64,000 nucleotides of DNA from Candidatus Latescibacterota bacterium (GCA_965215195.1 CBDCDC010000001.1:992001-1056000), one strand, 5' to 3'. Shown: positions 11,542 to 43,967, numbered from the stretch's first letter. Notes: a model not told the origin generated them from the letters alone. Numbers and translations are program-made.

Positions 11542-11560
11542 TATGAGACGAGGGCGAACG

Positions 11561-16274: not shown

Positions 16275-16282
16275 GAAAATCA

Positions 16283-16312: not shown

Positions 16313-16427
16313 GCAATTTATATAGAGAGTGTTCGACGCAAATACTCTCAAGTAAAGGCGGTTGCCAACGGTGGCAGGTGTGACACCGCTTTTTACGTTT
16401 AACCTTATTATAATGGAGGTCTCAACA

Positions 16428-17354
16428 ATGAGAAAATTGTTAGCTTTCGCCGCCACGGCGTTGATGCTGACTAGCACGGCTAGCCTCGCCCACTTTCCAG
16501 AAGGCCAGATCTTCGGGGCGTGGCAGTGGCCGTCGACCCATCTTCCTAACTTGGATGGCGACATCTCCGAGTGGAATGTGCTACCGGATGAGCTGTGGAT
16601 CGACATCTTCCAGACGGAAGTCGCCGAGGGCGATATCGGTCGCGAGATCGACACTGCCAATCTCAACTTCCGCGTCGCTGTTGGTTGGAACGACGAACTG
16701 GACCGCATCTATTATGTCTATGACCGCTTCGACGACATTTGGGATCGCGATGCCGGCGGCTTTGGCTGCTGCGGCCAAGATGACAGCATCGAGATTTTCC
16801 TCGACGCCGACCATAGCGCCGACCGCTTCGCCTTTTGGGATGGCGACTACGAGGACCCGGAGGAACGCGCCCGCAACAACGGCCGCACCAACCAGACGGG
16901 GCACTACCGCTGGCCGGCTCTCGAGCCTTTTGGCTTCTACTGGTTCTGGCTGAGTAGCTCAACTTGGCACGACAAAGAGCCTTATTCGTGTTGCCCGACC
17001 TCCTTCAATCTCGATGGGGCCCACGGCACCGAGGCCAACTTCCAAGCCGAGTGGTACACGGTTGGTTGGGATGATTTTGATCACAACAGCCCCGAAAACA
17101 GCATCCTCCACGATTTTGTCGAGGGAGAGATCATCGGCGTTGGTATCCAAGTCGTCGATAACGACAACGGCCCGAGTTCGGATGATCCTCGAACCGCCAA
17201 GTGGGCGCTGGGCGGTCAGCCCTGCATCAATGGCGACGGTGCCTGCGGCAGCGACTACATTTTGCTGCCGGTCCAAACCGATCTACTGCCGGATCAGATG
17301 TCGGCTATCGAGGGCAATAGCTGGGGCCACATCAAGGCTTCGTTCGGCCAATAG
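16428..17354 (+). CDS. Secreted CBM9/DOMON-like beta-sandwich protein with C-terminal SWGxIK tail
   Basis: GGAGG RBS; signal peptide ...SLA-HFPEG; PNLDGDISEW, VGWN...RIYY, DDSIEIFLDAD and IGVGIQVVDND motifs; ends SAIEGNSWGHIKASFGQ. Confidence 0.7.
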   Translation: MRKLLAFAATALMLTSTASLAHFPEGQIFGAWQWPSTHLPNLDGDISEWNVLPDELWIDIFQTEVAEGDIGREIDTANLNFRVAVGWNDELDRIYYVYDRFDDIWDRDAGGFGCCGQDDSIEIFLDADHSADRFAFWDGDYEDPEERARNNGRTNQTGHYRWPALEPFGFYWFWLSSSTWHDKEPYSCCPTSFNLDGAHGTEANFQAEWYTVGWDDFDHNSPENSILHDFVEGEIIGVGIQVVDNDNGPSSDDPRTAKWALGGQPCINGDGACGSDYILLPVQTDLLPDQMSAIEGNSWGHIKASFGQ

Positions 17355-17382
17355 GCGCGAACAACTAGCAGTTTTACTAATT

Positions 17383-17419
17383 AAGGAGGGAGGGTAGAGT
17401 TGCTCTACCCTCCCTCCTT
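17383..17419 (+). terminator. Perfect 17-bp hairpin (terminator or mRNA-stabilising stem)
   Basis: AAGGAGGGAGGGTAGAG-TTG-CTCTACCCTCCCTCCTT, followed by GTATTT, 29 nt after the 17354 stop. Confidence 0.75.
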
Positions 17420-17467
17420 GTATTTATGTATGATATGTACATTCTACAAACCTTGGGGATAGCGAGC

Positions 17468-19393
17468 ATGAGGAGAGGCTTATGGCTTTGGGTGCTTTGG
17501 GTGGCGATAGGATGGAGTGGGCGTAGCGGTGCGCTGACCGTTTACCGCATCGGCGCAGCGGATTTGCCCGCGCCCGCGTTGGATGTACCCTATCAATTTG
17601 TTCAGCTCGAATGGGAGGCCATAGATGCCAAAGCGCACGGCAGCGCGATACAAATGGCGCTCGGCCCCAATGGGATCATGCCGCAGCAGCTAGACCCGAC
17701 AGTCAACTTGACGCCTCTTTTGGACGAACGCGGCGGCCGGATTGAGACTTTGCAGACGATAGTCGGTTTTGCTCGCTTTCCGGCCCGCGATGCGCCGATG
17801 TTCGATGGCGATCCGACGACGCACTTTCTCGGCGATGGCGACTGGGGCGGTGATTACGGCCGGGTCAAAAACAAGCTCCTGATCTTCGACTTGGGTGGCA
17901 ACTTCATCGTCGATCGCATCAAGTTTTACCCCCGCGAACGCTTTCTCGACACCCGCTTCATTGAGCGCTTTGTTATCGGCATCAGCGATGGCGACCCACT
18001 CAAGGAGAATACGCGCGAGTACGTCGTTGGTGGAGAGGGCGGCCAGTTCCGCGATTACGATGTGGTGTACAACATCACCGAAAACACGCAGTCGGTGATC
18101 GAGCTGAGCATCCCGGATGCGCCTATCCGCCAACTCATGTTTGAGGCACCGCCCAACACCCGTGGCGTTTGGGAGATCGCCGAGTTTGAACTCTACGGCA
18201 TCGGCTTCGCGCCCGAGAGCCAGTACACAACCAACGTCATCGACTTAGGCGGCATGGTGAGTTTGGGCGACCTAACGTGGTCGGGGGAAGCCGAGGGGAG
18301 GGCAAAGGTGGCGATAGCGATGCGCAGCGGCGATGACGACGATCCCAATACCTATTGGCGCCTGACCTTTCGCGGCGACGAGCGCAGTCGCTTCGGCACC
18401 AGCGGCACCGCCTTGACGCTCAGCACGTACAACAAATTGGAAAAGGGCGAGAAGGCTGGAATCACGCCCGATACCGAAAACTGGTCCGACTGGAGCCCAC
18501 CATACAACTTCGCCGCCGGAGAGGATGTGCTGCTGGCGGATAGACCGCGTCGCTACGTGCAGTTCAAGGCCGATTTCACTGCACAGAAAGAAGCTGGTGG
18601 GCGTCTGGATTTTTTGCAGTTCAGTGTCTCGAATCCGCCGGTGGCTAGCCAAGCCTTGGCCGAGATCGGGCCGGCGAGTGCCCGTGCCGGAGAGGTGACG
18701 TCTTTTACTTATGCGATTCTGCCTCAGTTGCGCGACGAGGATTTGGGATTTGATACTATTGAGATTGAGACCCCAGTTGAGGTTGCGAGTATTGATGCGC
18801 TACGGATCGATAGCCAAGAGGCCAGCTTTGTTGTTGTGCGCTCGGACGCACGAGGATTCGCGCTGCGGATCCCGCGCATGGATCCGCAACAGACGGGCGA
18901 ACTAATTGAAATTGACTTTGCGGTGGCAGTGTTCAAGTTCGGGACGGTGTTCACCGGGAGGATCTCCGACAGCGAGAAGCCCTTTGAGGTGCGGCAGGCA
19001 CTGACCGCCGGCAACGCCGATCCACTGGTAGAGAGCAACTCCCTGAGCGTAGGGCTGGTCAATGTGGAGGAGAAGACGGTCAATGACCTCAAACTGTCTT
19101 CGCCGGTGTTTACGCCCAACGGCGACGGAATCAATGACGCCCTCGAGATTGAATACGAACTGTTGAATCTCTTCGGCGCGGTCCCGGTGGCACTGGATCT
19201 ATACGATCTGTCGGGGCAGCGGGTAGGGATGGTGCATCGGGGAACGGCGGCGAGCGGCCGATTCGCACTGACGTGGGACGGAGTGCTAGCGAATGGTGCT
19301 GTGACAGCACCGGGGCTGTATTTACTGCGATTGGAAGTTGACAGCGACCAAGGTAGGGAAGCGCGTCAGCGCGTCATTGCCTTGGCCTATTGA
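17468..19393 (+). CDS. Secreted discoidin-like protein with FlgD/CHU_C-type CTD (subtype A, copy 1)
   Basis: Signal peptide; mature start LTVYRIG; FDGDP..FLGDG, IFDLGG, IKFYPR, WEIAEFELYG; VFTPNGDGIND...ALAY. Confidence 0.8.
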   Translation: MRRGLWLWVLWVAIGWSGRSGALTVYRIGAADLPAPALDVPYQFVQLEWEAIDAKAHGSAIQMALGPNGIMPQQLDPTVNLTPLLDERGGRIETLQTIVGFARFPARDAPMFDGDPTTHFLGDGDWGGDYGRVKNKLLIFDLGGNFIVDRIKFYPRERFLDTRFIERFVIGISDGDPLKENTREYVVGGEGGQFRDYDVVYNITENTQSVIELSIPDAPIRQLMFEAPPNTRGVWEIAEFELYGIGFAPESQYTTNVIDLGGMVSLGDLTWSGEAEGRAKVAIAMRSGDDDDPNTYWRLTFRGDERSRFGTSGTALTLSTYNKLEKGEKAGITPDTENWSDWSPPYNFAAGEDVLLADRPRRYVQFKADFTAQKEAGGRLDFLQFSVSNPPVASQALAEIGPASARAGEVTSFTYAILPQLRDEDLGFDTIEIETPVEVASIDALRIDSQEASFVVVRSDARGFALRIPRMDPQQTGELIEIDFAVAVFKFGTVFTGRISDSEKPFEVRQALTAGNADPLVESNSLSVGLVNVEEKTVNDLKLSSPVFTPNGDGINDALEIEYELLNLFGAVPVALDLYDLSGQRVGMVHRGTAASGRFALTWDGVLANGAVTAPGLYLLRLEVDSDQGREARQRVIALAY

Positions 19394-19395
19394 GG

Positions 19396-21330
19396 ATGAG
19401 CCAGATGGGGTACATAATTGCATTGTGGACGTTGGGGTCGCTAGTGGTCGGCGCAGGCGATCTTGATGCTCTAACGATCTACCGGATCGGGGGTGCCGAC
19501 CTGCCCGCGCCGGAGCTAGCGTCGGTTGAAGGGGTGGAATTCGTGCAGATTGATTGGGCCGCTATCGACGAGGATTTGCACGGTAGTATCAACTTGCTAG
19601 AAGTGTCCGTTGGCCACATCGCGCCGCGTCAGCTTGACCCCACGGTCAATCTGACGCCGCTTTTGCCGCAGGCTGATTTTCTCGGCGATATACTCTATCT
19701 GACTTGGATCGGCTGGGGAGGGTTTAACGACGACGACGAGTTTATCTGGGACGAGGATCCCAATACGGCCTATCTGGGAGATGGTCATTTCGCCTCGCAT
19801 GGGCCGAATACCAAAAACCTGATCTTCGATTTTGGCGGGCTGTTTTTTATCGACCGGGTCAAGTTCTACCCGCGGCCCAGCCATCTGACCGACCGCTTCG
19901 TCGAGCGCTTCGTTATCGGCACTAGCGATGGCGACCCGCTCAAGGATCCCGACCGGGAACTTCGGGCCGGGGCGAGAGGCGATTATGTGGCCTTCGATGT
20001 GATTTACAATGTCCGCGACAATACGCAGCCAGTCATTGAGTTGAAGATGCCCGATGAGCCAATCCGCAAGTTACTCTTTCGGGCACCGGAGAATACGCGG
20101 GGAATTTGGGAATTGGCCGAGTTGGAACTCTATGGTTCGGGTTTTGCGCCCTTCTCCAATTATACCAGCAGCATTATCGACTTGGGCAAGCCGGTGGCTT
20201 TGGGCGATTTGAGCTGGTCGGGCGAAGCCGACACTGGTGCCCAGATCAGCTTAGTGATGCGTAGCGGCGATGTGCCAGACCCGAGCATCTATTGGCGCTT
20301 CACCTTCCGCGGCGACGAGCAGAGCCGCTTTGACGCCAAGGGCCAGCCGCTTACGGCCCGAGCCTACGACAAGCTCAATAAAGGCGAAAAGGCCGGGATT
20401 ACGCCTGATACCCAAAACTGGGAGCCGTGGAGTCAGGCCTACGCCTTTGCGGCTGGTTCAGGGGCGATGCAAGCCGACAAACCGCGTCGCTACGTACAGC
20501 TCAAGGCCGATTTTACCGCGCAGAAGGAGGCTGGCGGACGGCTGGATTTTTTGCAGTTTAGCGTCTCGGACCCGCCAGTGGCGACGCAAGTGTTGGCCGA
20601 AATTTCGCCACCGAGTGCCCGCGCCGGGGACGTCACCCAGTTCACCTATACGATTATGCCGCAATTCGAGCGCGAAGATTTGGGATTTGACACCATCGAG
20701 ATTGAGACGCCGGTCGAAGTAGCCAGCATTGATGGTGTGCGAATCGCCGGCCAGGAAGCCAGCTTTGAGGTCGTGTTCTTGGACGCCACCGGCTTTGTCC
20801 TCAAAATCCCACGGATGGACGTGCAGCAAACCAACGAACGGATTGAGGTGGACTTCGCCGTGGAGGTGTTCAAGTTTGGAACGGTATTCGCTGGCCGGAT
20901 CTCCGATAGCGAAAAGCCCTTTGAGGTTCGTCAGGCATTAACCCCGGGCGATGCCGATCCGCTGACCGATAGCAACACCCTGAGCGTGGGATTAGTCGAG
21001 GTGAGAGAGGAAGCAGTCAATGCGCTCAAGCTGTCTTCGCCGGTGTTTACGCCCAACGGCGATGGAATCAACGACGCCCTTGAGATCGAATACGAGTTGT
21101 TGAACCTTTTTGGTGCGGTGCCAGTGATGCTGGACCTATACGACTTATCAGGGCGGTGGATCGGGGTGGTGGATCGGGGCATGGCGGCGAGCGGACGGGT
21201 CTCGCTGCGTTGGGACGGGAGGTTAGCGGACGGATCAGTGGCTGCGCCGGGATTGTACCTGCTGCAGCTCGAAGTAGAAAGCGACCAAGGCAAGGAAGCA
21301 CGCCAGCGCGTCGTCGTTTTGGCCTACTGA
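19396..21330 (+). CDS. Secreted discoidin-like protein with FlgD/CHU_C-type CTD (subtype A, copy 2)
   Basis: LTIYRIG start, same motif order as 17468, ends RVVVLAY. Confidence 0.8.
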   Translation: MSQMGYIIALWTLGSLVVGAGDLDALTIYRIGGADLPAPELASVEGVEFVQIDWAAIDEDLHGSINLLEVSVGHIAPRQLDPTVNLTPLLPQADFLGDILYLTWIGWGGFNDDDEFIWDEDPNTAYLGDGHFASHGPNTKNLIFDFGGLFFIDRVKFYPRPSHLTDRFVERFVIGTSDGDPLKDPDRELRAGARGDYVAFDVIYNVRDNTQPVIELKMPDEPIRKLLFRAPENTRGIWELAELELYGSGFAPFSNYTSSIIDLGKPVALGDLSWSGEADTGAQISLVMRSGDVPDPSIYWRFTFRGDEQSRFDAKGQPLTARAYDKLNKGEKAGITPDTQNWEPWSQAYAFAAGSGAMQADKPRRYVQLKADFTAQKEAGGRLDFLQFSVSDPPVATQVLAEISPPSARAGDVTQFTYTIMPQFEREDLGFDTIEIETPVEVASIDGVRIAGQEASFEVVFLDATGFVLKIPRMDVQQTNERIEVDFAVEVFKFGTVFAGRISDSEKPFEVRQALTPGDADPLTDSNTLSVGLVEVREEAVNALKLSSPVFTPNGDGINDALEIEYELLNLFGAVPVMLDLYDLSGRWIGVVDRGMAASGRVSLRWDGRLADGSVAAPGLYLLQLEVESDQGKEARQRVVVLAY

Positions 21331-21333
21331 AAG

Positions 21334-23934
21334 ATGGGTATGCATCGTATCAGCATCGTATTAGTGCTTGGTTGGGCAGCGGGCGTCTCGGCCCAAGCTG
21401 GGCATCAGGTGACGACGACTCAGGTAGTAGTCAACAGCCGCGCTCACTGGCAGAACTGGAGCTTTCCACCGGGAGTGCTGGAACTAGGTGCCGATGGCTC
21501 GGTGCGGCCTCAAAACGTCCGCCGCGACATCAATGCGGTGCAAGATATCGTTGAGCACTTGCGCTTACGTCCTCCGAAAAGAATCAAAAAAGACCCCGAA
21601 GACATCGTGCCACTTGACGCGGTACAGGGCGGGGGCACGGCAAATATTGTCGCGGTGCCCAAGATTTTTGATGGGGATTTGACGACCTACTGGGAACCGG
21701 CTGCGGCGAGCGAAGAGTCCGATATCGCTTCGCAGTGGTGGTTCGTCGTTGACTTGGGCCGGTTGGTGATCGCTAAGAAGATCGTGCTCAAATTCGTCGC
21801 TGAGGATATGGGGGACCCGTTCTTGCAGTTCGATGTGCTGGCCTCGCAGGGCAACAAGCCCAAGGGCAACCAGCGTTCTCCGCTACCGGAGTTTAGCCCG
21901 TTGTTGCGGACCTTGCGACCCAACAAGGACCAGCGCGTCTTCGAGATTGACATGGACCAGTTGGGAGATGATTTCGTCGGTACCGGCCTCCGATTCGTGC
22001 AGATCGTGGTAACTGACAGCGGTTTTGACCGCGGCCGGGAGCTGAGCCAAGCCGAGTACGAGGCCCTACCGGCAGGAGAGCAGGGGGCGATTGACTACTT
22101 TAAAAAGCTCACTGGAGGCCGCGAGACCTTGGTGGAACAGAGGGTTTTCGAGCGTCTCGACGCTGACCGCCAAGGCACGATCCGTTACTACCGCAAGGAG
22201 CGTCCGCGGCTGGCGGAGCTGGAGATTCTAACCGAAGGCGACGAGATCCTTTCCGGGATGCTGGAACGCGGCGGTTTCGGTACGGCGACGCAGACAGCCT
22301 CAATTAGCAACATGATTGACGGCGAGATCGAAAGTAGGGTCCAATTTATCACCCGCTTCGGCCGGGGATCGCTCAACTCCCCGGAGGGCGGGGTTTTGTT
22401 CGATTTAGGGGCCTTTTACTGGATCGATGCTTTCCGCATCGCCTACGCCGGCGGGGCCTTTCAAGCCTACCATCTGGATTTTTCCGATGGCAGCCTCGAA
22501 GCAGACGGCAGCCTCAAATGGTCGGTCGCGGTCAATCGCACGGAGACCAGCCACTACGGCAGCAGTCAGGGGCTAGGTTTCGGCCTCTATGAGGGCAACG
22601 ACTTTGAGCGGATTAAAGCGCGATTCTTCCACCTCGTCTGGAAGCAGTTCGAGTCGGGCAGCGGCTTTGGCGGCGGCTCCGGCCAGCCGGCCGAGATTCA
22701 ACTCTACGGGCGGGGTTTTCAGCCAGAAGTGACCCTGACGTCCGACTTGGTGCGCTTGGGCGGTAGTCGCAACCTGTCCTCCATTGAGTGGGACGCCGAT
22801 ACTCCGCCGGGGACCAGTGTAATTTTGCAGACCCGCACCGGCAACGAGCTCGACGAAGTGCTGCGCTACTTCAAAAAGGACGGCACCGAAGTTACCGAGG
22901 CTGAGTACAACAAGCTGCTATCGATTTTTCGCGGCGATACCATCGGCGAAGAAGTCGCCGGTGGGGACTGGAGCGGCTGGAGCCAGCCCTACGAAGACGC
23001 CAGCACCAGCCCGATTACCTCACCCAGCCCGCGCGAATTTCTCGAGATCCGTGCGGGCCTGCTATCGGACGATCCAGAGGTTAGTGCAACGCTGCGCTCA
23101 ATCCGGCTCAACTTCACCAATCCGGTCGCGCAAAGGCTTGTCGGCGAAGTCGCCCCTTTCGAGGTCGGGAGCCTCGGCAAGGAGCAGCGTTTTTCCTTTT
23201 ACGTGCGCCCGGACTTCGCTCGTAGCGATCCCGGTTTCGACCAGTTGCTTTTGATCGCTCCCGCCGACATGAATCTGCGCTTCGAGGGATTTTATGGTGG
23301 CACAGAGACCGAAATGGCGGCCGGGGAGACGACCGGGACGGCCCTCGGTGCTGATGTCGTGCCTACTTCAGGCGACAGCTTGCAGATAGCGTTCTCTCCA
23401 CTGAGGCCTGATTCGGAGGTCGAGGTGGTGCGGTTGGACTTTTCGACAGCCTTGTTTTCGACCGGGGCGGTGGTGCAGGCGTCGTTGCAGCACAGCGGGT
23501 TGGAGGCCGGTGGTTGGCAGCGGGTGGATCCGGGCGAGGCGGTTGCGGCGGTTATCAGCAATACGACGACCTTGGTGGGAAAAGTCAAGTATGGGCCTTT
23601 AGTGCAAGCGGTGTCGGTGGTACCAGTGGCGTTTTCGCCCAATGGCGACGGAATCAATGACGAGGTATCGTTCCGCTTTGCGGTGGTCAAGGTGAGTGAT
23701 GACAGTCCGGTGGAGGTACTCATCTACGATCTACAAGGGCGGTTGGTGCGGCGACTGGCCGAGCAGCGGGGGTTGAGCACGGGGTCGTATGGGATCGCTT
23801 GGGACGGGCGCGACGGACAGGGCGAGGTAGCTCCACCAGGGATCTATCTAGCACGGTTGCGCGTGGACACCGATACCGAGGGATCCCAGATGGGCAATGC
23901 CGAAATTTTTCGCACCGTCGCCGTTACCTACTAG
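21334..23934 (+). CDS. Secreted protein with two discoidin-like domains and FlgD/CHU_C-type CTD (subtype B, copy 1)
   Basis: Signal peptide; QVVVNSRAHWQNWSFP; FDGDLTTYWEP..WWFVVDLG; second IDG..FDLGAFYWID domain; FSPNGDGIND...AVTY. Confidence 0.8.
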   Translation: MGMHRISIVLVLGWAAGVSAQAGHQVTTTQVVVNSRAHWQNWSFPPGVLELGADGSVRPQNVRRDINAVQDIVEHLRLRPPKRIKKDPEDIVPLDAVQGGGTANIVAVPKIFDGDLTTYWEPAAASEESDIASQWWFVVDLGRLVIAKKIVLKFVAEDMGDPFLQFDVLASQGNKPKGNQRSPLPEFSPLLRTLRPNKDQRVFEIDMDQLGDDFVGTGLRFVQIVVTDSGFDRGRELSQAEYEALPAGEQGAIDYFKKLTGGRETLVEQRVFERLDADRQGTIRYYRKERPRLAELEILTEGDEILSGMLERGGFGTATQTASISNMIDGEIESRVQFITRFGRGSLNSPEGGVLFDLGAFYWIDAFRIAYAGGAFQAYHLDFSDGSLEADGSLKWSVAVNRTETSHYGSSQGLGFGLYEGNDFERIKARFFHLVWKQFESGSGFGGGSGQPAEIQLYGRGFQPEVTLTSDLVRLGGSRNLSSIEWDADTPPGTSVILQTRTGNELDEVLRYFKKDGTEVTEAEYNKLLSIFRGDTIGEEVAGGDWSGWSQPYEDASTSPITSPSPREFLEIRAGLLSDDPEVSATLRSIRLNFTNPVAQRLVGEVAPFEVGSLGKEQRFSFYVRPDFARSDPGFDQLLLIAPADMNLRFEGFYGGTETEMAAGETTGTALGADVVPTSGDSLQIAFSPLRPDSEVEVVRLDFSTALFSTGAVVQASLQHSGLEAGGWQRVDPGEAVAAVISNTTTLVGKVKYGPLVQAVSVVPVAFSPNGDGINDEVSFRFAVVKVSDDSPVEVLIYDLQGRLVRRLAEQRGLSTGSYGIAWDGRDGQGEVAPPGIYLARLRVDTDTEGSQMGNAEIFRTVAVTY

Positions 23935-23944
23935 AGGAAACATA

Positions 23945-26557
23945 ATGATGAATCGATCTTTGGCCCTGGCCGTGCTGATCGCTGGCACTGCGTTAGCCCA
24001 ATCGGGATACCAGATAACCGCGAATCAAGTGGTGGTTGACAGTCGCGCTCACTGGCAAAACTGGAATTTTCCGCCAGGGGTGCTGGAACTGGGAAGTACC
24101 GGGACGGTGCAACCCCGGAGTCTGCGGCGCGATATTAACGCTGTCGGCGACATTGTCGCCAACTTGCGTGCGCGTCCACCTGAGGGTCTAAAGAAAACGC
24201 CAGAAGCCATCGTCCTCGCCGACGCCATACTAGGTGGTGCCCGCTCCAATGTCGCTGGCGTGGAAAACCTTTTCGACGGTGATATAACTACCTATTGGGA
24301 ACCTGACCCACCAACCGAGGCGCTGGATCTGAGCACTCAGTGGTGGTTTATCGTCGATTTGGGGCGCTTGGTGATGGCCAAGAAGATCGTGCTCAAGTTC
24401 GTCGCCGAAGAGTTGGGCGATCCCTTCTTACAATTCGACCTCTTGGCCTCGCAGGGCAATATTCCTAAAGGCAACCAGCGTTCACCCACCCCCGAGTTTA
24501 CCACCATCCTCCGCACGTTAAAACCCAACAAGGAACAGCGGGTTTTCGAACTGGTCACCAACTCAGAGCCAACCTTTGCCGGCACCGGGATGCGCTTCTT
24601 GCAGATCATAATTACCGGCAGTGACTTCGACCGCGGGCGGGAAGTGATCTTGGAACAATACGAGGCTCTGCCGACGAGCGACCAGGGGGCCATTGAGTTT
24701 TACAAAAAGCAGGCCGATGGCAGCGAGACCGTGGTGTCGCCGGAAATTTACGAGTTGCTAACAGCCGAGCAGCAAGGACCGATCCGCTACTTCCAGCGCG
24801 AGCGCCCGCGATTGGCCGAATTGGAAGTCTGGGCAGAGGGCGACGAGATTCTCACCGGAGCCTTGGCCCGCGGTGGGTTTGGCACTGCGACGCAAACCGC
24901 GGCGATCAACAACCTGATCGATGGCCAAATCGAGAGCAAGGTCCAGTTTCTCTATTCTTTCGGTCGCGGCTCGTTCAAGGATCCGGAAGGCATCGTCTTT
25001 TTTGACTTGGGGGCGTTTTACTGGATCGATGCTTTTCGCATGGCCTACGGTGGCTCAACGTTTCGGGATTACCGGCTCGATTTTTCCGACGGCAGCCTCG
25101 AAGCCGACGGCAGCCTTAAGTGGACTACGGCGGGGACGCGCCAGACCTCCTCCCCTACAGCGGTGGGGTCGAAGTGGGAAAGCGAGACTAATCTCAGATT
25201 CGGAGCCTACGAGGGTAACGATTTTGAGCGGATAAAAGCGCGCTTCTTTCGCTTGGTGTGGGAGCAGGTCGAAAGCGCCACGGCTCGCGGTGGGGCTACC
25301 GGCCAGCCGGCGGAGATCCAGCTTTACGGTCGGGGGTATCACCCGGAGGTGGTGCTGATCTCCAATTTGATCCGCTTGGGGGCCAGCCGCAATCTGCTGT
25401 CGATTGCTTGGGACGCTGATACGCCGCCGGGGACCAGCGTAGTTTTGCAGACCCGCACCGGCAACGAACTTGATGAGGTACTGCGCTACTTCAAAAAGGA
25501 CGGTACAGAAGTCACCGAGGCCGAGTACAACAAATTGTTGTCGATTTTTCGCGGTGACACTGTCGGCGAGGAGGTCGCCGGTGGGGACTGGAGTGACTGG
25601 AGTGCGCCCTACGAAGTGGCTGCGGGCAGTCCGATTAGTTCGCCATCGCCGCGGGCGTACTTGGAGGTGCGGGCGGTGTTGCGGTCGGACATGCCCGATT
25701 ACAGCGCGACGCTGCGATCGCTGCGATTGGATTTCACCAATCCGGTCGCGCAGGGGCTATTGGGCGAAGTGACCCCCTTTGCGGTGGAGCAGCTGGGGCA
25801 GCCGCAGCGATTTTCGCTCTACGTGCGCCCAGAGTTTGCCACTGGCGATCCGGGGTTTGATCAGTTGTTAGTAGTAGCCCCGTCGGATATGCGCTTGGCG
25901 TTTGAAGGGGTATATGGCGGTCCGGCGGCGGCACTGGCCACCGACGTAGGAGCCGATTGGGCCTTGGACGGAGCGGAAGTCGTCCCCACCGCCGGCGATA
26001 GTTTGCAAGTGGCGTTTTCGGAGATAGGCCCATCCTCGGAGGTGGAGGTGGTGCGGCTGGATTTTTCGACGGCCTTGTTTTCGACCGGAGCAGTATTGCA
26101 GGCATCGTTGCAGCACAGTGTTGAGGGAGAGGGGGGCTGGCAGCGGGTGGATCCGGGCGAGGCAGTAGAAGCCATTGCCAGCAACACGACGACGCTGGTG
26201 GGGGCGGTGCAGGAGGGTGCCTTGGTGCAGGCGGTGAAAGTAGAGCCGCGAGTGGTTACGCCCAATGGCGACGGGGTCAACGACGAGGTGGGGTTTCGCT
26301 TCCAGGTGGTCAAGGTGGACGGAGCCAGTCCGGTGGAGGTGTTGATCTACGATGTGCGGGGGCGGCGAATGCGGCGCTTAGTCGAGCATCGTCCGGCGAG
26401 CACGGGGATCTACGAGATGGAGTGGGACGGTCGGGATAAGCAGGGGACGGTGGTGGTACCGGGAGTCTATCTGGTACGGGTGCGAGTCGATACCGATATC
26501 GAGGGGGCCCACATTGCACACGCCGAAATCCTACGTACTATCGCCGTTGCCTACTAG
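23945..26557 (+). CDS. Secreted protein with two discoidin-like domains and FlgD/CHU_C-type CTD (subtype B, copy 2)
   Basis: GAGG RBS before ATG 23945; close paralog of 21334; ends RTIAVAY. Confidence 0.8.
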   Translation: MMNRSLALAVLIAGTALAQSGYQITANQVVVDSRAHWQNWNFPPGVLELGSTGTVQPRSLRRDINAVGDIVANLRARPPEGLKKTPEAIVLADAILGGARSNVAGVENLFDGDITTYWEPDPPTEALDLSTQWWFIVDLGRLVMAKKIVLKFVAEELGDPFLQFDLLASQGNIPKGNQRSPTPEFTTILRTLKPNKEQRVFELVTNSEPTFAGTGMRFLQIIITGSDFDRGREVILEQYEALPTSDQGAIEFYKKQADGSETVVSPEIYELLTAEQQGPIRYFQRERPRLAELEVWAEGDEILTGALARGGFGTATQTAAINNLIDGQIESKVQFLYSFGRGSFKDPEGIVFFDLGAFYWIDAFRMAYGGSTFRDYRLDFSDGSLEADGSLKWTTAGTRQTSSPTAVGSKWESETNLRFGAYEGNDFERIKARFFRLVWEQVESATARGGATGQPAEIQLYGRGYHPEVVLISNLIRLGASRNLLSIAWDADTPPGTSVVLQTRTGNELDEVLRYFKKDGTEVTEAEYNKLLSIFRGDTVGEEVAGGDWSDWSAPYEVAAGSPISSPSPRAYLEVRAVLRSDMPDYSATLRSLRLDFTNPVAQGLLGEVTPFAVEQLGQPQRFSLYVRPEFATGDPGFDQLLVVAPSDMRLAFEGVYGGPAAALATDVGADWALDGAEVVPTAGDSLQVAFSEIGPSSEVEVVRLDFSTALFSTGAVLQASLQHSVEGEGGWQRVDPGEAVEAIASNTTTLVGAVQEGALVQAVKVEPRVVTPNGDGVNDEVGFRFQVVKVDGASPVEVLIYDVRGRRMRRLVEHRPASTGIYEMEWDGRDKQGTVVVPGVYLVRVRVDTDIEGAHIAHAEILRTIAVAY

Positions 26558-26584
26558 CTCTTTTTCTCCAGCGGAGGGAGTACT

Positions 26585-28546
26585 ATGCGAGTGTCGCTGG
26601 TTCTACTGGCCCTCGGTTTCCTCTGGAGCCAAGCGCCGGCACTGACGATTTATCGGATTGGTGGCCAGAGCCTGCCTCCGCCCGAGCTAGACGCCCCCTA
26701 CGAATTCGTGTCGTTGTCTTGGGCCGATGCCGACGAGGCTCGCGATGGCCGGATCGAGTTAGTCGAGGTAGGGGCCGACTTCATTCGCCCGCAGCGTCTA
26801 GATCCCGCTGTCAACATCGCGCCGCAGATCTACGAATTGGACGGTGGCAAAGTCTTCGTCATGCACTCGCACACCGGCTGGACCGAGAACTTAGAGGAAG
26901 ACGACGTCTTCATCTTCGATGGCGACCCCGAAACCGTCTATTTGGGCGATGGCCACTGGCCTTGGGGGTCCATTTTCTTTGGCGGACGCTCCCTCGATGA
27001 GAGCTGGGGCAAGGGACGATGGATCTACACCAAGGTCTGGATCTTCGACCTCGGCGGCCTATTCACCCTCCAGCGCATCCGCTTTTTCCCTCGCGAAAAA
27101 TTCGCCAACGAGCGTTTCGTCCAGCGATTTAGAGTCGGCACCAGCGATGGCGACCCCCTCAAGGATGGCACCCGCGAGCACACGATCATGCACCGGGGCT
27201 TTTTTTTCGACTTCGACATTGCCTATGACGTCAAGGAAAATTCGAGCGGGGTGGTAGAACTGGCGATGCCCTCCGAGCCGGTCCAGCGCCTGCTGTTTGA
27301 CGCCCCGGAAAATTCGAGTGGGATTTGGGAACTAGCCGAGTTTGAAATATACGGCTTCGGCTTCACCACCGAGGCCACCTACCGCTCGAGCGTCATCGAC
27401 CTCGGCGAAGCGGTCGCACTGGGTGCCGTTACCTGGTCGGGGAGGCAGGATCCAGAGGCCGCCATCGAGCTGCGGACGCGCAGCGGCGACAGCGCCGACC
27501 CGAACAACTACTGGCGCTTCACGTTCAGGGGCGACGAGAAGTCTCTCTTCGACCAACAAGGGAGGCCGCTCACCCGGCAAAGCTATGCCAAACTCAACAG
27601 GGGAGAGAAGGCGGGGATTACCTATGATACCCGCAACTGGGACTCGTGGAGTCCCGCCTATGACTTCAGCACCGGGGCGGGAGATATACAGGTGGACAAA
27701 CCGCGGCGCTACGTGCAGTTTAGTGCCGACTTCCACTCAACCCGCGACCAAGGTAGTCAGCTTGACTACGTGCAGTTTGCCGTGTCGGACCCGCCTATTG
27801 CAACCCAAGTCCTAGCGGAAATCACGCCGAATGCGGTACAGGCGGGCGAGCCGGCGGCGTTTACCTATGCGTTGACCCCGGTGTTTAATCTCCGGGATTT
27901 GGGCTTCGATTCGATTGAAATCGATACCCCGAGCCTGCCCGATGGGGTGGACGCGGTGCGGATCAGCGGCGAGGAGGTGGGGTTTGAGATCCGGCGGCTG
28001 GACGAGCGAGGCTTTGAATTGGGGATTCCCCGGATTGACGCGACGCGGACCGGCGAGCGGATCGAGGTCGATTTCCGCGCCGAGATATTCCAGTTCGGGA
28101 CGCTTTTTGCCGGGCGGGTCTTCGATAGCGAGAAACCGCACGAAGTGAGGCAGGCGCTGACGGCCGGCGATGCGAATCCCCTACTAGATGGCAACCGCTT
28201 AAGCGTGGACATTCTGGATTTGGAACAAAAGAGCATCAAGAGGCTGCGCGTACAGGCCAGCGTCTTCACTCCCAACGGCGACGGGGTTAACGATGTGGTC
28301 GCGATTGAGTGCGACTTGCTGAACGTAGAGGCCGCGCCCGTGGTAATCCACATATTTGATTTGGCGGGGCGCGAGATCGGCCGAATCGACAGCGGAGAGC
28401 AGGTCAGCGGGCGGTTTAGGGCGACGTGGGACGGGCGTGCTGCCGATGATCGACTCGCGTCGCCGGGGACGTATCTGTTGCGGCTCATTGTGGAGACGGA
28501 TGAGGGGGCCGATCGGGCGCAACGGGTCGTCGGCGTGGCCTATTAA
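26585..28546 (+). CDS. Secreted discoidin-like protein with FlgD/CHU_C-type CTD (subtype A, copy 3)
   Basis: GGAGG RBS; LTIYRIG; long aromatic loop after LGDGH; VFTPNGDGVND...GVAY. Confidence 0.8.
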   Translation: MRVSLVLLALGFLWSQAPALTIYRIGGQSLPPPELDAPYEFVSLSWADADEARDGRIELVEVGADFIRPQRLDPAVNIAPQIYELDGGKVFVMHSHTGWTENLEEDDVFIFDGDPETVYLGDGHWPWGSIFFGGRSLDESWGKGRWIYTKVWIFDLGGLFTLQRIRFFPREKFANERFVQRFRVGTSDGDPLKDGTREHTIMHRGFFFDFDIAYDVKENSSGVVELAMPSEPVQRLLFDAPENSSGIWELAEFEIYGFGFTTEATYRSSVIDLGEAVALGAVTWSGRQDPEAAIELRTRSGDSADPNNYWRFTFRGDEKSLFDQQGRPLTRQSYAKLNRGEKAGITYDTRNWDSWSPAYDFSTGAGDIQVDKPRRYVQFSADFHSTRDQGSQLDYVQFAVSDPPIATQVLAEITPNAVQAGEPAAFTYALTPVFNLRDLGFDSIEIDTPSLPDGVDAVRISGEEVGFEIRRLDERGFELGIPRIDATRTGERIEVDFRAEIFQFGTLFAGRVFDSEKPHEVRQALTAGDANPLLDGNRLSVDILDLEQKSIKRLRVQASVFTPNGDGVNDVVAIECDLLNVEAAPVVIHIFDLAGREIGRIDSGEQVSGRFRATWDGRAADDRLASPGTYLLRLIVETDEGADRAQRVVGVAY

Positions 28547-28556
28547 GGAAGATGCG

Positions 28557-30488
28557 ATGAAGCACGTAGCGGTATGGTTTGGATTGTGGCTGTTCATTAG
28601 CGGTCCTCTCGACGCACTGACGATCTACCGGCTCGGGGGCAGCGATTTGCCGATCCCGGAGTTAGCGGCGATTGAGGGGGTAGAGTTCGTGCAGCTAGCG
28701 TGGGCTGACATTGACGAAGATCGGCACGGCCAGACCAACCTAATCGAAGTAGCCCCCAACTACATCGCGCCGCGTCAACTTGACCCGGCGGTCAACCTGA
28801 CGCCGCTTTTGCCCCAGCCTGACTTCCTCGGCGATATTCTCTACCTGACTTGGATCGGCTGGGGTGGTCCCGATGTCGATGACTGGTTTATTTGGGACGA
28901 GGATCCCAATACGGCCTATCTGGGCGATGGCCACTTCGCCCAGCATGGCCCCAGACACAAAAGTCTAATTTTCGACCTCGGCGGTCTGTTTTTTCTCGAG
29001 CGAATCAAGTTCTACCCCCGTGAAAGACACCTCCACGACCGCTTTGTGGAAAGCTTCACTATCGGCACCAGCGACGGCGATCCGCTCAAAGATCCCTATC
29101 GAGAATTGCAGGCCGGCGTGGGGGGGTTCGGCAGGGGGTCTGTCTTCGCCTTTGACGTGCTCTACGATATCAGGGAAAATACCGATCCCATCATTGAGCT
29201 AGAACTGCCCGCGGAACCCGTGCAGAAGGTGCTCTTCCGGGCACCGGAGAACACGCGGGGCATATGGGAGTTGGCCGAACTCGAACTCTACGGCGCTGGT
29301 TTTGCCCCCTTTGCCGGCTATCGGAGCAATGTCATTGATATGGGCCGGGCGGTGTCTCTGGGCGAACTGAACTGGTCGGGTGCGGTTGAGCCGGGTGCCC
29401 GCGTCGCCTTAACTACGCGCAGCGGCGACACGCCTACGCCCAATATCTACTGGCGCTTTACTTTTCGCGGCGATGAGCAGAGCCGCTTCGACACTCAGGG
29501 TCGGGCATTGACGCACAAAGCCTATAACAAGCTCAACAAGGGCGAGCGGGCCGGGATCACGCCCGATACCCAGCACTGGGAAGCTTGGAGCCAAGCATAC
29601 GATTTTGCGACTAGCGCGGGGGCGATGCAGGCGGACCAGCCCCGGCGCTACGTGCAACTGCGTGCCGATTTTGAATCGCTCAAGGAGGCGGGTGGGCGGC
29701 TGGACTATGTACAGTTCGGCGTTTCGGACCCGCCGGTGGCCACCCAAGCGCTGGCTGAGATCGCCCCGGCGCTGGTTAAAGCGGGTGAGGTATCTTCCTT
29801 TACCTATGCGATATTGCCCCGGTTTGAAGAGGACGATCTGGGGTTTGACACCATTGAGATTGAGACGCCTGTGCAGGTGACGAATGTTGACGCAGCGCGC
29901 ATTAGCGGGATGGAGGTCGGCTTTGACGTCCTGCGCTCGGACGCAAAGGGCTTTGCGTTGCGCATCCCGCGCATGGATTTGCAGCGCACCGAAGAGCTGG
30001 TTGAGGTGGACTTTCAGGTAAAAGTGTTCAAGTTCGGCACGATGTTCGCCGGCCGAGTGTCGGATAGCGAAAGACCCTTTGAAGTGCGGCAGAGGCTCAC
30101 TGCGGGCGATGCCGACCCATTGGTCGAGAGCAATGCGCTGAGCGTGGGTTTGGTTGAGTTGCAACGCAAGGCGGCCAACGCGCTTGAGCTAGCCTCGCCA
30201 GTGTTCACGCCCAATGGCGACGGAGTCAACGACGAATTGCAGATAGAATATGAACTGTTGAATCTCTTGGGAGCGGTGCCAATCGCGCTGGATCTGTACG
30301 ATTTGTCGGGCCATCGTTTGGGGGAAGTGTATCGCGGCGCGGCGCAGAGCGGCCGATTTCACTTGGAGTGGGGTGGGGTGTTAGCGAGTGGGGAGCGGGT
30401 AGTGCCGGGGTGCTACCTACTGCGCCTAAAGGTGACCAGCGACCAAGGCGGAGAAATCCTCCAGCGCGTCATCGCACTGGCTTATTAG
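28557..30488 (+). CDS. Secreted discoidin-like protein with FlgD/CHU_C-type CTD (subtype A, copy 4)
   Basis: AAGGA RBS, ATG 28557 (MKHVAVWF); LTIYRLG; N-half very similar to 19396; ends RVIALAY. Confidence 0.8.
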   Translation: MKHVAVWFGLWLFISGPLDALTIYRLGGSDLPIPELAAIEGVEFVQLAWADIDEDRHGQTNLIEVAPNYIAPRQLDPAVNLTPLLPQPDFLGDILYLTWIGWGGPDVDDWFIWDEDPNTAYLGDGHFAQHGPRHKSLIFDLGGLFFLERIKFYPRERHLHDRFVESFTIGTSDGDPLKDPYRELQAGVGGFGRGSVFAFDVLYDIRENTDPIIELELPAEPVQKVLFRAPENTRGIWELAELELYGAGFAPFAGYRSNVIDMGRAVSLGELNWSGAVEPGARVALTTRSGDTPTPNIYWRFTFRGDEQSRFDTQGRALTHKAYNKLNKGERAGITPDTQHWEAWSQAYDFATSAGAMQADQPRRYVQLRADFESLKEAGGRLDYVQFGVSDPPVATQALAEIAPALVKAGEVSSFTYAILPRFEEDDLGFDTIEIETPVQVTNVDAARISGMEVGFDVLRSDAKGFALRIPRMDLQRTEELVEVDFQVKVFKFGTMFAGRVSDSERPFEVRQRLTAGDADPLVESNALSVGLVELQRKAANALELASPVFTPNGDGVNDELQIEYELLNLLGAVPIALDLYDLSGHRLGEVYRGAAQSGRFHLEWGGVLASGERVVPGCYLLRLKVTSDQGGEILQRVIALAY

Positions 30489-30501
30489 AGGGCGAGATAC
30501 G

Positions 30502-33105
30502 ATGAAGACCATTTGGACTTTTGCCTGCGCCTTGCTGCTGGGCACGATGTGCGCCGAGGCTCAGGGAGTGGGTCATCGCGTCACCGCTGACCAAGTCGTA
30601 GTCAATAGTCAGCAGCACTGGCAGAACTGGTCCTTCGGGTCGGGCACTCTAGACATCGGACCCAGCGGCGAAGTCCGGCCACGGCGGCTGCACAAGAATA
30701 TCAATGCCGTGGAGAATGCCCTCGAATTCCTGCGCCTGAATCCTCCCAATTACATTAAAAAAGATGCGGCAGATATCGAACTCAGCGACGGAATCCGCGC
30801 CGGCTCCAATGCTCCGGGCGTACTGGCCCTCTTTGACGGCGATATGGAGACCTATTGGGAACCCGACGTACTCAACCGAGGTATCGACTTGGCGACGCAG
30901 TGGTGGTTTATCGTCGATCTGGGCCGCTTCGTCATGGCCCGCAAGATCGTGCTCAAATTTGTCGATGAAGCACTGGGCGACCCCTTCCTGCAGTTTGATG
31001 TACTAGTCTCGGAAGGCCGCCAGCCCAAAGGCAACAGCCGTTCGCAAACGCCTGAATTTAGCCGGGTGGCGCGCACCTTGGTGCCCAACAAGCAACAGCG
31101 GCTCTTTGAGATCGAACTGGAATCCGCAGAAGAGTTTGCGGGCATGGGCCTGCGCTTCGTTCAGGTGATCGTGACCGGCAGCGACTTTGCCCAAGGTCGG
31201 GAGATCAGCCGCGACGAGTACGAGGCCCTGCCAGAAGCAGACCGGGGAGCGATTCTCTACCACAAGCGGCTGCCAAACGGCAATGAGGCCGCGGTCAAAA
31301 AGGAGGTCTATGACCAACTCGAAGCATCGCGGCAAGGCCCCGTGCGCTATTTCGTGCGCGAAAGGCCGCGCCTAGCCGAACTGGAAGTGTGGGCCGAGGG
31401 CGACGAAATCCTGATAAATACGGTTGAGCGCGGGGGCGTAGTCACCTCGACCCAGTCCTTGGCGCTGGCGAGCCTGTTCGATGGCGATGTACTCAGTTTC
31501 AGCGAGGTGATTTTTATCTTCTCTCCTGGGCAATTAAAGGAACCAGAGGGCGAGGTGTTTTTCGATATGGGGGCCTCGTTCTGGATCGACGCTTTCCGCA
31601 TGGCCTTGGGAGCGCGCCAGCGAAATTTCGAGGGTTATAGACTGGATTTCTCCAATGGTGAGCGCGAGGCAGACGGTAGCCTCAAGTGGACTCCCGCGGC
31701 CGCGGTGAGTGGTGCGGAAGTCCTCGGTCGCAGCGTGATTGGCACCCGAAGCGTAATGGGCAACAACTTTAGCCCCCTAAGGGCACGTTTTTTTCGCTTC
31801 GTGTGGAATCAGATTGTGCGCGGGGTAGGCAATAGCGGTGCGGCCATTCTGGCCGATCCGTCCGAGTTGCAACTCTACGGGGAAGGGTTTATGTCGGAAG
31901 TAAGCCTGACTTCGGATCTGGTGCGGCTGGGCGGCAGACGCAACTTGGTCTCAATCGAATGGGACGCGGATGTGCCGCCGGGCACGAGTGTGCTGGTGCA
32001 GACGCGTACCGGCAACGAGCTAGCGGAGCATCTGCGCTATTTCAAAAAAGACGGCACCGAAGTGAGCAAAGATCAGTACGACAAGCTGCTCTCGATATTC
32101 AAGGGGGATATTGTCGCCGAGGAAGTAGTAGGTGGGGATTGGAGCGACTGGAGTCAGCCTAGCGAAGACCCTAGTGGCAGTCCGATTACTTCGCCGTCGC
32201 CGCGCGAGTTCCTAGAGATCCGGGCGACCCTACTATCGGACGATCCTTCAGTGAGCGCGACTTTGCGCTCGGTCTGGCTCAACTTCACTCATCCCGTGGT
32301 GCAGAGCTTGGTGGGAGAGTTGGAACCGACGATGGTAGAGACGCTGGGGAAAGAGCAGGACTTTTCGCTCTTCGTGCGGCCGAACTTCGACCTCCGCGAT
32401 CCCGGCTTCAACGAGTTCCTGCTGGTGGTACCAGCGGATATGACGCTTGAGTTCAACGGTCTATATGCCGGTGCAGACGAGGGGCTGGCTGGCCGCGATA
32501 TGGACGGAGTAGCGGTGGCCGATGTCGAGGTTGTAGCGACGGGCGGCGATAGCCTGCGATTGGCCTTTCCGCTGATCGGCCCAGAGTCGGGGGTGGAGCT
32601 GTTGCGACTGGATTTCACCACGGCGCTTTTTTCGGCCGGAGCAGTGCTGAAGGCGTCGCTGCAGAATAGCACCTCGGAGGAATGGGATTGGCAGCGGGCG
32701 GACCCAGGTGACGCAGTAGAGGCAGTACTCAGCAACACCATGACCTTGAGGGGCGCAATGCAGAGCCGATCACTGCTAGGGGACGTGGTGATGCCAGAGA
32801 TCTTTACCCCAAACGGGGATGGGGTCAACGACCAAGCGTCGTTCCACTTTAAGGTAATCAAGGTAGGCGACGATAGTCCGGTAGAGGTGCTGATCTACGA
32901 TTTGAGCGGTCGACTAGTGAGGCAGTTGGTTGAGCAGCGCGGGGTGAGTACGGGGGTGTACGGAATTGTGTGGGATGGTCGGGGTGAGTCGGGTGCGGTG
33001 GTCGCACCGGGAGTATATGTGGTGCGCCTGCGGGTGGATACCGACACCCAAGGGGTACGCATCGGGGCTGGGGAGGTCTTGCATACTATTGCTATCGCCT
33101 ACTGA
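30502..33105 (+). CDS. Secreted protein with two discoidin-like domains and FlgD/CHU_C-type CTD (subtype B, copy 3)
   Basis: QVVVNSQQHWQNWSF; FDGDMETYWEP; IFTPNGDGVND...AIAY. Confidence 0.8.
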   Translation: MKTIWTFACALLLGTMCAEAQGVGHRVTADQVVVNSQQHWQNWSFGSGTLDIGPSGEVRPRRLHKNINAVENALEFLRLNPPNYIKKDAADIELSDGIRAGSNAPGVLALFDGDMETYWEPDVLNRGIDLATQWWFIVDLGRFVMARKIVLKFVDEALGDPFLQFDVLVSEGRQPKGNSRSQTPEFSRVARTLVPNKQQRLFEIELESAEEFAGMGLRFVQVIVTGSDFAQGREISRDEYEALPEADRGAILYHKRLPNGNEAAVKKEVYDQLEASRQGPVRYFVRERPRLAELEVWAEGDEILINTVERGGVVTSTQSLALASLFDGDVLSFSEVIFIFSPGQLKEPEGEVFFDMGASFWIDAFRMALGARQRNFEGYRLDFSNGEREADGSLKWTPAAAVSGAEVLGRSVIGTRSVMGNNFSPLRARFFRFVWNQIVRGVGNSGAAILADPSELQLYGEGFMSEVSLTSDLVRLGGRRNLVSIEWDADVPPGTSVLVQTRTGNELAEHLRYFKKDGTEVSKDQYDKLLSIFKGDIVAEEVVGGDWSDWSQPSEDPSGSPITSPSPREFLEIRATLLSDDPSVSATLRSVWLNFTHPVVQSLVGELEPTMVETLGKEQDFSLFVRPNFDLRDPGFNEFLLVVPADMTLEFNGLYAGADEGLAGRDMDGVAVADVEVVATGGDSLRLAFPLIGPESGVELLRLDFTTALFSAGAVLKASLQNSTSEEWDWQRADPGDAVEAVLSNTMTLRGAMQSRSLLGDVVMPEIFTPNGDGVNDQASFHFKVIKVGDDSPVEVLIYDLSGRLVRQLVEQRGVSTGVYGIVWDGRGESGAVVAPGVYVVRLRVDTDTQGVRIGAGEVLHTIAIAY

Positions 33106-33107
33106 CG

Positions 33108-43964: not shown

Positions 43965-43967
43965 TTC

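Follow-up and report, generated by a model that had tools for sequence, protein, structure and literature searches.

The window analysed here is a stretch of 64,000 nucleotides from a Candidatus Latescibacterota bacterium (GCA_965215195.1, CBDCDC010000001.1:992001-1056000), and all positions are counted from its first nucleotide. Over the interval 17468-30488 it carries an array of seven genes from a single family, all in the same orientation and arranged A1 A2 B1 B2 A3 A4 B3. The subtype A proteins (643-655 amino acids [aa]) are 49-69% identical to one another and are interleaved with three longer subtype B genes. Our subject is a set of three variable stretches in the four A proteins, which lie in a predicted CBM32/discoidin-like domain. 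These stretches are far more divergent between paralogues than other regions are, and they are as conserved within each group of orthologues as the remainder of the protein, or more so.

Organization of the Array

A1 (17426-19393, plus strand, 655 aa) shows the architecture of subtype A: a signal peptide, a split beta-sandwich with the predicted CBM32-like domain inserted in it, immunoglobulin (Ig)-like middle domains, and a C-terminal domain of the kind associated with the type IX secretion system (T9SS). A2 (19390-21330, plus strand, 646 aa) has a TTG start and is the copy modelled with AlphaFold2, while A3 (26585-28546, plus strand, 653 aa) has a long loop 1 of 27 residues. A4 (28557-30488, plus strand) is 643 aa long from the ATG at 28557; the mechanical open reading frame (ORF), which begins at 28356, is probably too long. 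The subtype B proteins are ~870 aa in length and have the C-terminal 400 residues in common with A, preceded by a different and longer N-terminus. B1 (21334-23934, plus strand, 866 aa) resembles A in its middle and C-terminal parts, and its different N-terminus has a weak F5/8 type C match; B2 (23897-26557) and B3 (30502-33105) are encoded on the same strand.

A1 and A2 overlap by 4 nt at the TGA stop of the former and the TTG start of the latter (19390-19393), and there is a second overlap between the ORFs of B1 and B2 (23897-23934). Both overlaps are possible cases of translational coupling, although the true start of A2 may be an ATG two codons downstream of the TTG.

Divergence of the Loops between Paralogues

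The original prediction quoted eight loop strings from the A proteins, and all of these were recovered letter for letter, loop 1 between the anchors LGDG and IFD and loop 2 between SDGDPLK...RE and (Y/F)D(V/I). Loop 1 is found on the plus strand at 17840-17875 in A1 (DWGGDYGRVKNK), 19786-19815 in A2, 26954-27034 in A3, and 28932-28961 in A4. Loop 2 follows, on the same strand, at 18020-18055 in A1 (YVVGGEGGQFRD), 19960-19992 in A2, 27179-27211 in A3, and 29106-29150 in A4. The third variable stretch, which had been placed ahead of (F/W)D.DP, is likewise present, at 17723-17800 in A1 (before FDGDP), 19666-19746 in A2 (residues 93-119), 26831-26914 in A3, and 28812-28892 in A4, again on the plus strand.

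To quantify divergence we used 24 sequences, comprising the four paralogues from six species (this genome and five congeneric ones), with none dropped. The mean difference between paralogues is 0.89 for loop 1, 0.78 for loop 2, and 0.72 for the third stretch, whereas the remaining N-terminal domain gives 0.40, the middle region 0.37, and the C-terminal domain 0.38, so the predicted excess of divergence in the loops is borne out. Against a null of same-size sliding windows across the mature protein that do not overlap the tested loop, the loop value is reached by 0 of 563 windows for loop 1, 17 of 599 for loop 2, and 15 of 560 for the third stretch. This excess is not a general loop effect, because residues in coil are no more divergent between paralogues (0.40) than those in strands (0.41).

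Length variation follows a similar distribution. In an alignment of 98 homologues, the indels of the mature protein concentrate in the N-terminal domain, and the large ones occur at loop 1 (up to 15+2 residues, following A2 positions 135-139) and at loop 2 (up to 4+6, following 194-196). Small indels are found at A2 positions 44-45, 93-98, 104, and 112. Beyond position 200, gaps occur only at 349 (eight sequences) and 574 (six sequences), and insertions are limited to one residue after 456 and a 14-residue extension after 645, each in a single sequence. A domain alignment of 25 A-type paralogues from this genome, in which 33 of 55 A-type genes have a near-full domain match, places its indel hot spots at the same two loop sites and at three more loops.

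An additional segment, absent from the list of the original prediction, is found at A2 residues 57-76 (19558-19617, with equivalents in A1, A3, and A4). It differs by 0.68 between paralogues and is the only segment that is also fast among orthologues, with a within-group difference of 0.139 that 7 of 584 windows equal or exceed. It thus behaves more as a variable surface than the flagged loops do.

Conservation of the Loops among Orthologues

The array is kept gene for gene in five congeneric species, as one-to-one orthologues that are 88-91% identical. Within these groups the loops differ by only 0.046-0.066 over the six species, against a median of 0.067 for the sliding windows. Both loops of A1 are identical in six of six species, while the 27-residue loop of A3 has five variable positions among orthologues. 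The ratio of nonsynonymous to synonymous divergence (dN/dS; Nei-Gojobori method, NG86), pooled within orthologue groups, is 0.065, 0.072, and 0.074 for the three loop segments, compared with 0.078 in the remaining domain, 0.110 in the middle region, and 0.139 in the C-terminal domain. Orthologue dS is 0.28-0.48, so these estimates are unsaturated. Between paralogues, loop dN is 0.72-0.84 as against ~0.30 elsewhere, with dS saturated. The regional dN/dS comparison, which had been proposed as a check on hypervariability resembling that of antibody complementarity-determining regions (CDRs), therefore gives the opposite result: within orthologue groups the loops are at least as conserved as the rest of the protein.

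Sequence comparison indicates that the classes of loop 1 are discrete and old. Among the 98 homologues, the loop 1 segment takes the form HFA.HGP..K with length 27 (49 sequences), DWGGDYG...NK with length 29 (40 sequences), or HWPWGS... with length 41-44 (4 sequences), and it has another length in seven sequences. Each class is common to proteins that are just ~52-57% identical. In a FastTree phylogeny of the 98 sequences, A2 and A4 belong to a 12-leaf clade, which A1 joins within a 26-leaf clade; A3 falls in a 4-leaf clade with other long-loop proteins.

No machinery for targeted variation was detected near the array. The genome's only two reverse-transcriptase matches lie on the other contig, and the region 15000-35000 contains no pair of template and variable repeats; its direct repeats are paralogue homology at 60-90% identity. 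Strain-level variation was surveyed in contigs only: those of four independent runs from three studies show no indels, and hence no length variants, over A1-A2, which is weak evidence, as contigs lose rare variants. Of the substitutions in these contigs over A1-A2 (110 in all), 40 are listed, and one of the 40 lies within a loop. Contig breaks near 19749-19778 were not taken as variation, as they coincide with a motif repeated between paralogues.

Taken together, these results do not support CDR-like hypervariability. They also make the phage-driven variation suggested by the original prediction very unlikely, given orthologue-conserved loops, three discrete classes, no diversity-generating retroelement nearby, and no length variants in contigs. 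The accompanying idea of a diversified receptor repertoire holds in that paralogues with different loops exist, but not in the sense of continuing change, as the loops are fixed within orthologues. The pattern is one of quick divergence after duplication followed by long fixation, i.e., a hard-wired panel and not a changing repertoire.

Relatives of the array also differ in gene content. Three of the five (loci L032, L034, and L036 in genomes G010, G011, and G003, respectively) contain two B2-like genes in place of the single copy here, which shows the array changing through duplication of whole genes. In four related species, A3 and A4 are separated by a 4.8-kb insertion (L035:2866-7672 in G011). 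The same 415-aa ORF occurs in the G011 insertion and in G003, G006, and G010, and the products of the G011 insertion are an SDR dehydrogenase, a xylose-isomerase-like TIM-barrel protein, a GFO/IDH/MocA oxidoreductase, and a Meth_synt_2-like protein. The insertion is like a sugar-catabolism set placed inside the array.

Scaffold Fold and Position of the Variable Stretches

The predicted CBM32/discoidin-like domain spans 19636-20145 in A2 (residues 83-252), 17693-18208 in A1, 26801-27364 in A3, and 28782-29303 in A4, all on the plus strand, and is supported by structure and profile matches. Our AlphaFold2 model of A2, built on the 98 homologues, has a mean predicted local distance difference test score (pLDDT) of 85.6 and a predicted template modelling score (pTM) of 0.73. 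When residues 84-252 of this predicted structure are compared with all representatives (VIA-align), the CBM32 4a42_B is matched at Z 11.0 (root-mean-square deviation [rmsd] 2.7 A, 116 of 126 residues), followed by the CBM32 chains 4zxe_A (Z 10.3), 2xqx_B (9.8), 7blg_A (9.5), and 2v72_A (9.4); related DOC/APC10 domains are matched as well. A profile of the 25 own-genome paralogue domains, searched against solved chains, finds the F5/8 type C chain 7jnb_A at E 5.4e-11 and the CBM32-type chains 2j1a (2.1e-5), 1eut (4.3e-5), 4a41 (4.4e-5), and 2v72 (6.3e-5). An ESM Atlas lead points the same way, with 0.92 to an F5/8 type C cluster. The discoidin/CBM32 scaffold named by the original prediction is thus supported by both the model (Z 9.4-11.0 to CBM32 structures) and the paralogue profile.

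Model matches that span A2 residues 27-395 align just 115-142 residues at low rmsd, and we read residues 27-83 and 253-395 of the model as one sandwich into which the CBM32-like domain is inserted. Two broader searches were set aside. The whole 646-residue model, compared with the PDB by Foldseek, returns only multi-Ig arrays (complement C3, C5a peptidase) at TM-scores of 0.10-0.18 and is uninformative on the N-terminal domain, and the full-length 98-sequence profile returns only FlgD and C5a peptidase C-terminal matches, so a domain-only profile is required. Residues 301-340 of the A2 model have a pLDDT of 40-56 and almost no secondary structure, yet contain the invariant residues Y301, W302, R303, T305, R307, and E310; judging from the model, this segment may fold only on a partner or ligand.

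In CBM32 modules, sugar sites are built by apex loops of variable length, according to PMC5291390, which also gives four perturbed regions (971-975, 990-993, 1015-1024, and 1087-1090). The spacing of these regions, as given there, fits A2 segments 93-119, 133-142, 161-173, and 234-243. The canonical galactose motif, as given in PMC3313936, consists of H1392, Y1395, R1423, N1428, and F1483, with E1376 in addition in one module, and the same motif is carried by the GH84C module. In 2j1a, the residues at the spacing of this motif (H, +3 aromatic, +32 R, +37 N) are H41, W44, R73, and N78, which align with A2 L129, G132, R162, and T167, respectively, in an alignment that is unreliable in the loops; with the same uncertainty, the Asn position, T167 in A2, is Asn in A3. 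The residue 16 before the canonical His falls, in this alignment, within the third variable stretch. The Arg of the YPR motif corresponds to the canonical motif Arg, and R162 is invariant in the 98 sequences, as are P161, N235, G238, W240, and E241.

By sequence alignment, then, loop 1 appears to start inside the sugar-contact loop that bears the canonical His/aromatic pair in CBM32s. Based on the 2j1a alignment read with PMC3313936 and PMC5291390, two of the three stretches, loop 1 and the third stretch, correspond to canonical CBM32 binding loops. Subtype A conserves the remaining two apex loops of the canonical set (YPR... and PENTRGIW), a pattern suggestive of a site that is half constant and half variable. 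In the A2 model, loop 2 forms a beta-hairpin, with strands at 191-195 and 198-208 and a tip at 196-197, where the insertions occur.

Probable Secretion and Sorting Domain

The T9SS-type C-terminal sorting domain, identified by Pfam and structure matches, extends over 21043-21327 in A2 (from VFTPNGDG) and starts at 19106 in A1, 28262 in A3, and 30201 in A4, on the plus strand in each. It is the only domain that Pfam sees in the A proteins, with CHU_C scores of 22.2-31.5 bits and FlgD_ig scores of 16.3-33.7 bits (cut-off 27). A3 passes the cut-offs of both CHU_C and FlgD_ig, whereas A2 passes just that of FlgD_ig; A1 and A4 fall short of both. The modelled residues 539-646 of A2 match the PorU C-terminal domain 6za2_B at Z 12.3 and the C-terminal domain (CTD) of mirolase, 8qb1_A, at Z 9.1. 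TIGR04131 (type B) has only sub-threshold matches, to B1 and to a 743-aa A-type protein of the same cluster (described below).

The genome encodes PorU (628.6 bits, cut-off 420) and SprA (499.4 + 97.3 bits, 605.8 summed, cut-off 200), and export by type IX secretion is plausible because both exceed their curated cut-offs. By sequence, the array proteins have Sec signals without a lipobox cysteine. Based on these matches and on the model, A1-A4 are probably T9SS cargo.

Predicted Barrel Cassettes and Genome-Wide Distribution of the Family

The array belongs to a larger gene cluster that begins with a distant A-type paralogue of 743 aa with the same C-terminal domain (6473-8704). This is followed by two genes, denoted O, for proteins of 985 and 991 aa that are predicted giant outer-membrane beta-barrels (8584-14518), and by an s gene (16362-17354) encoding a 330-aa protein with a signal peptide and no Pfam family; all are on the plus strand. 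The s protein appears secreted and is rich in Asp, Trp, and Cys pairs. It is a recurrent cassette member, and its family, with 22 copies, recurs at cassette edges.

A2 has 172 matches in this genome (6.13 Mb, two contigs, 95% complete). By our own hidden Markov models, run over 4475 ORFs of at least 250 aa, the C-terminal domain occurs in 213 ORFs, the shared middle region in 130, and the A-type N-terminal domain in 55. The 39 clusters that include a barrel gene hold 103 of the 130 A/B genes, at about three A/B genes per barrel gene, and gene orders recur among them: ABBO is found six times, in addition to sABAO(O) and AABO. The cluster in the window, A-O-O-s-A-A-B-B-A-A-B, is the largest.

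The barrel family itself has 53 copies in the genome, none of them with a Pfam family at E 0.01 or a solved sequence relative. An AlphaFold2 model of a barrel protein (pLDDT 71.5) consists of long beta-hairpins over residues 134-929, and its Foldseek matches, all at low TM-score, are to LptD, MtrB, SlpA, TonB-dependent receptors, ushers, and SprA. The TonB-dependent receptors are only some among many barrel fold matches (TM 0.18-0.23). On the strength of this model, the O proteins are predicted to be giant outer-membrane barrels. Of 121 genomes sampled from the phylum, 71 contain the barrel family, including 40 of 40 from the same taxonomic family and 0 of 44 from three other families. Subtype A, at E 1e-150 or better, occurs in all 12 genomes searched from the genus and in none of the 8 searched from other families.

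A second cassette starts at 58897-63253, with B-type proteins of 669 and 799 aa and a barrel gene just beyond. The 799-aa protein passes the Pfam cut-off for a NedA-like galactose-binding domain (30.3 versus 27.8 bits). The array is flanked by four FG-GAP repeat proteins (1398-3023, 33108-34694, 35534-37363, and 38369-40306), three of which have an ASPIC/UnbV C-terminal domain; among these genes lie one resembling the formylglycine-generating enzyme (34691-35491) and one for a GT87 glycosyltransferase (37188-38540). Further downstream, 42960-53086 encodes an ABC transporter set of the sugar type, with a periplasmic binding protein (42960-43964), an ATPase (43968-45476), and a permease (52127-53086). 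This set is interrupted by a 1766-aa AAA_22/AAA_16 protein (45533-50833) and a 423-aa ORF of no family.

Proposed Function and Alternatives

That lectins of different specificity can be made by varying the apex loops of an otherwise constant CBM32 sandwich is textbook knowledge for this family. The account that we favour, with a little more than even confidence and on sequence and model grounds, is that A1-A4 are surface lectin-like proteins that bind ligands at the apex of this domain, that class-specific loops choose the partner, and that the barrel takes up or holds the catch. The proteins would be exported by type IX secretion and displayed on the cell surface, with the CBM32/discoidin-like lectin domain seated in the beta-sandwich near the N-terminus. 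The conserved half of the recognition end, formed by the YLGDG start of loop 1, the YPR arginine, and PENTRGIW, would provide a common hold. The paralogue-specific half, consisting of the remainder of loop 1, the stretch before (F/W)D.DP, and possibly the tip of the loop 2 hairpin, would set what each copy binds, the ligands most likely being different glycans or glycan decorations. The loops would have diverged fast after the gene duplications and then been held by purifying selection, leaving a few discrete specificities. A cassette would combine several such proteins with a giant barrel and probably capture surface material and pass it in, or anchor the cell.

Several observations weigh against this account. 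Single sequences give little sign of the domain in Pfam, where A2 reaches 15.3 bits for F5/8 type C (cut-off 28.2) and A1, A3, and A4 have no match, and the model has its lowest confidence around loop 1 (pLDDT 59-67 at residues 111-140). In the alignment to 2j1a, Leu and Gly stand at the positions of the canonical His and aromatic residues, so a galactose site of the usual kind would be absent, if an alignment that is unreliable in the loops can be followed here. Loop 2 is not among the canonical CBM32 binding loops, and A2 residues 57-76, the segment that is fast among orthologues, lie upstream of the lectin-like domain and outside it. CBM32/discoidin folds also bind proteins and lipids, with glycans just the commonest case. 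The only name given to the 120 homologues listed is "hypothetical protein".

A broader version of this account, which we put forward tentatively, holds that the ~39 cassettes make up a combinatorial surface capture system peculiar to the phylum. In each cassette a barrel of the new family would work with about three T9SS lectins, and ancient loop classes would pick each polymer. The cluster in the window would be a version with four specificities feeding two barrels, and the whole an analogue of polysaccharide utilization loci (PULs) built from unrelated parts.

Alternatively, the loops could be subunit-recognition surfaces through which the A and B proteins of one cassette form a defined hetero-oligomer, possibly on the barrel, with no role in binding an external ligand. 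That each barrel gene comes with a fixed set of about three A/B genes would suit such an assembly, and the co-oriented array and the 4-nt overlap of A1 and A2 fit joint, stoichiometric production. A fixed protein-protein interface would conserve the loops of each paralogue equally well, and discoidin/DOC-type proteins that act in protein complexes, APC10 and IFT25, are among the fold matches. We nevertheless consider this unlikely, because, judged against solved CBM32 modules (PMC3313936 and PMC5291390), loop 1 and the third stretch fall on the loops that form the ligand site, and because the loop 1 classes recur in proteins of distant relatives in other gene contexts.

It is much less probable that the loops are unconstrained surface loops that drifted neutrally after duplication, with four redundant copies. 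Surface loops of a beta-sandwich tolerate change, and the engineered nanoCLAMP proteins show that CBM32 loops are freely replaceable (PMC10404686). Furthermore, paralogue dS is at saturation (1.6-2.2; for loop 1 it could not be computed), which renders selection on the duplication branches unmeasurable. However, unconstrained loops would also drift between orthologues, and the invariance of both A1 loops across the six species contradicts this, as synonymous divergence at the same codons is 0.37-0.48. The overall orthologue dS (0.28-0.48) argues against near-clonal genomes, and all four copies are retained in five of five related species.

Finally, continuing diversifying selection, whether by antigenic variation, an arms race over a phage receptor, or a diversity-generating retroelement, deserves almost no credence: the loops are the parts that diverge most between paralogues and they vary in length, and in the closest pair, A2 and A4, they have dN/dS of 0.31/0.78 and 0.49/1.98 compared with 0.15/1.09 elsewhere, but the low within-group differences and dN/dS ratios, the sharing of loop classes by distant proteins, the lack of a nearby reverse transcriptase or repeat pair, and, more weakly, the contigs all oppose it, and diversity-generating retroelements do not generate length differences.

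Significance

The purifying selection seen here replaces the first view of an adaptive or arms-race repertoire with that of a hard-wired panel. What is new is an unnamed family of carriers with a T9SS tail and the module inserted in another sandwich, its expansion to 130 genes in one 6.1-Mb genome, its organization with giant barrels of an undescribed family, and the long retention of discrete loop classes. Of these, the wider barrel cassette is a more surprising object than the loops. If, as in the lectin account that we favour, the loops set ligand choice, they would offer a simple sequence handle by which dozens of cassettes could be sorted by substrate, and the array supplies four naturally occurring loop variants of a common scaffold that could be tested.

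The source of the array, in which four predicted secreted surface proteins neighbour one another, is an uncultured marine bacterium; the host bacteria are apparently sponge-associated, a habitat taken only from the labels of three sequencing runs. Literature searches on type IX secretion in Latescibacteria/Latescibacterota returned no paper, and neither these nor a search on sponge-symbiont genomes of the group gave a description of the family, with subscription journals and supplements outside the coverage. A term search of PMC12993501 finds no match for secretion system, FlgD, discoidin, TonB, polysaccharide utilization, or adhesi.

Comparison with Known Systems

The surface glycan-binding proteins of Bacteroidota PULs (SusE/F beside SusC/D) are alike in outline, as these are repeated barrel loci with Ig-like and CBM-like surface proteins, each diverged for its own substrate. 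However, SusC (Plug/TonB-dependent receptor) and SusD have no match among the 32 window proteins scanned, and the window cluster contains no glycoside hydrolase. The proteins described here also differ in that their Sec signals lack a lipobox cysteine and a T9SS domain takes the place of the lipid anchor.

The SprB-SprF/PorP systems of Bacteroidota, in which cargo with a type B CTD is paired with an outer-membrane partner, resemble the cassettes in the match of the CTD to CHU_C/type B models, in the adjoining barrel genes, and in the presence of PorU and SprA. Unlike SprF and PorP, the barrels here are ~900 aa in length, belong to no Pfam family, and are identified as PorP/SprF by none of our searches. 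Moreover, there are several cargo genes per barrel and about 39 cassettes per genome.

The CBM32 modules of glycoside hydrolases, such as Clostridium perfringens GH84C, GH89, GH31, and NanJ, share the fold and a detectable sequence kinship with the A proteins. In both, a ligand site is or would be formed by variable apex loops on a constant beta-sandwich, as described for CBM32 in PMC5291390 and PMC3313936. Both also have several divergent copies side by side, each with its own specificity in the case of the hydrolase modules and putatively so here, and the canonical Arg is kept. The differences are that the A proteins have no attached enzyme, that their module is inserted in another sandwich and accompanied by Ig-like domains and a T9SS sorting domain, that Leu and Gly occupy the canonical His/aromatic positions in the alignment, and that the copies are separate genes in an array.

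The closest counterpart of the CDR idea in the original prediction is nanoCLAMP, an engineered NagH CBM32-2 with three randomised loops, which shows that the scaffold can carry CDR-like loops (PMC10404686). There the loops come from man-made libraries of 10^10 variants, whereas the natural family described here has settled on a few discrete, conserved classes.

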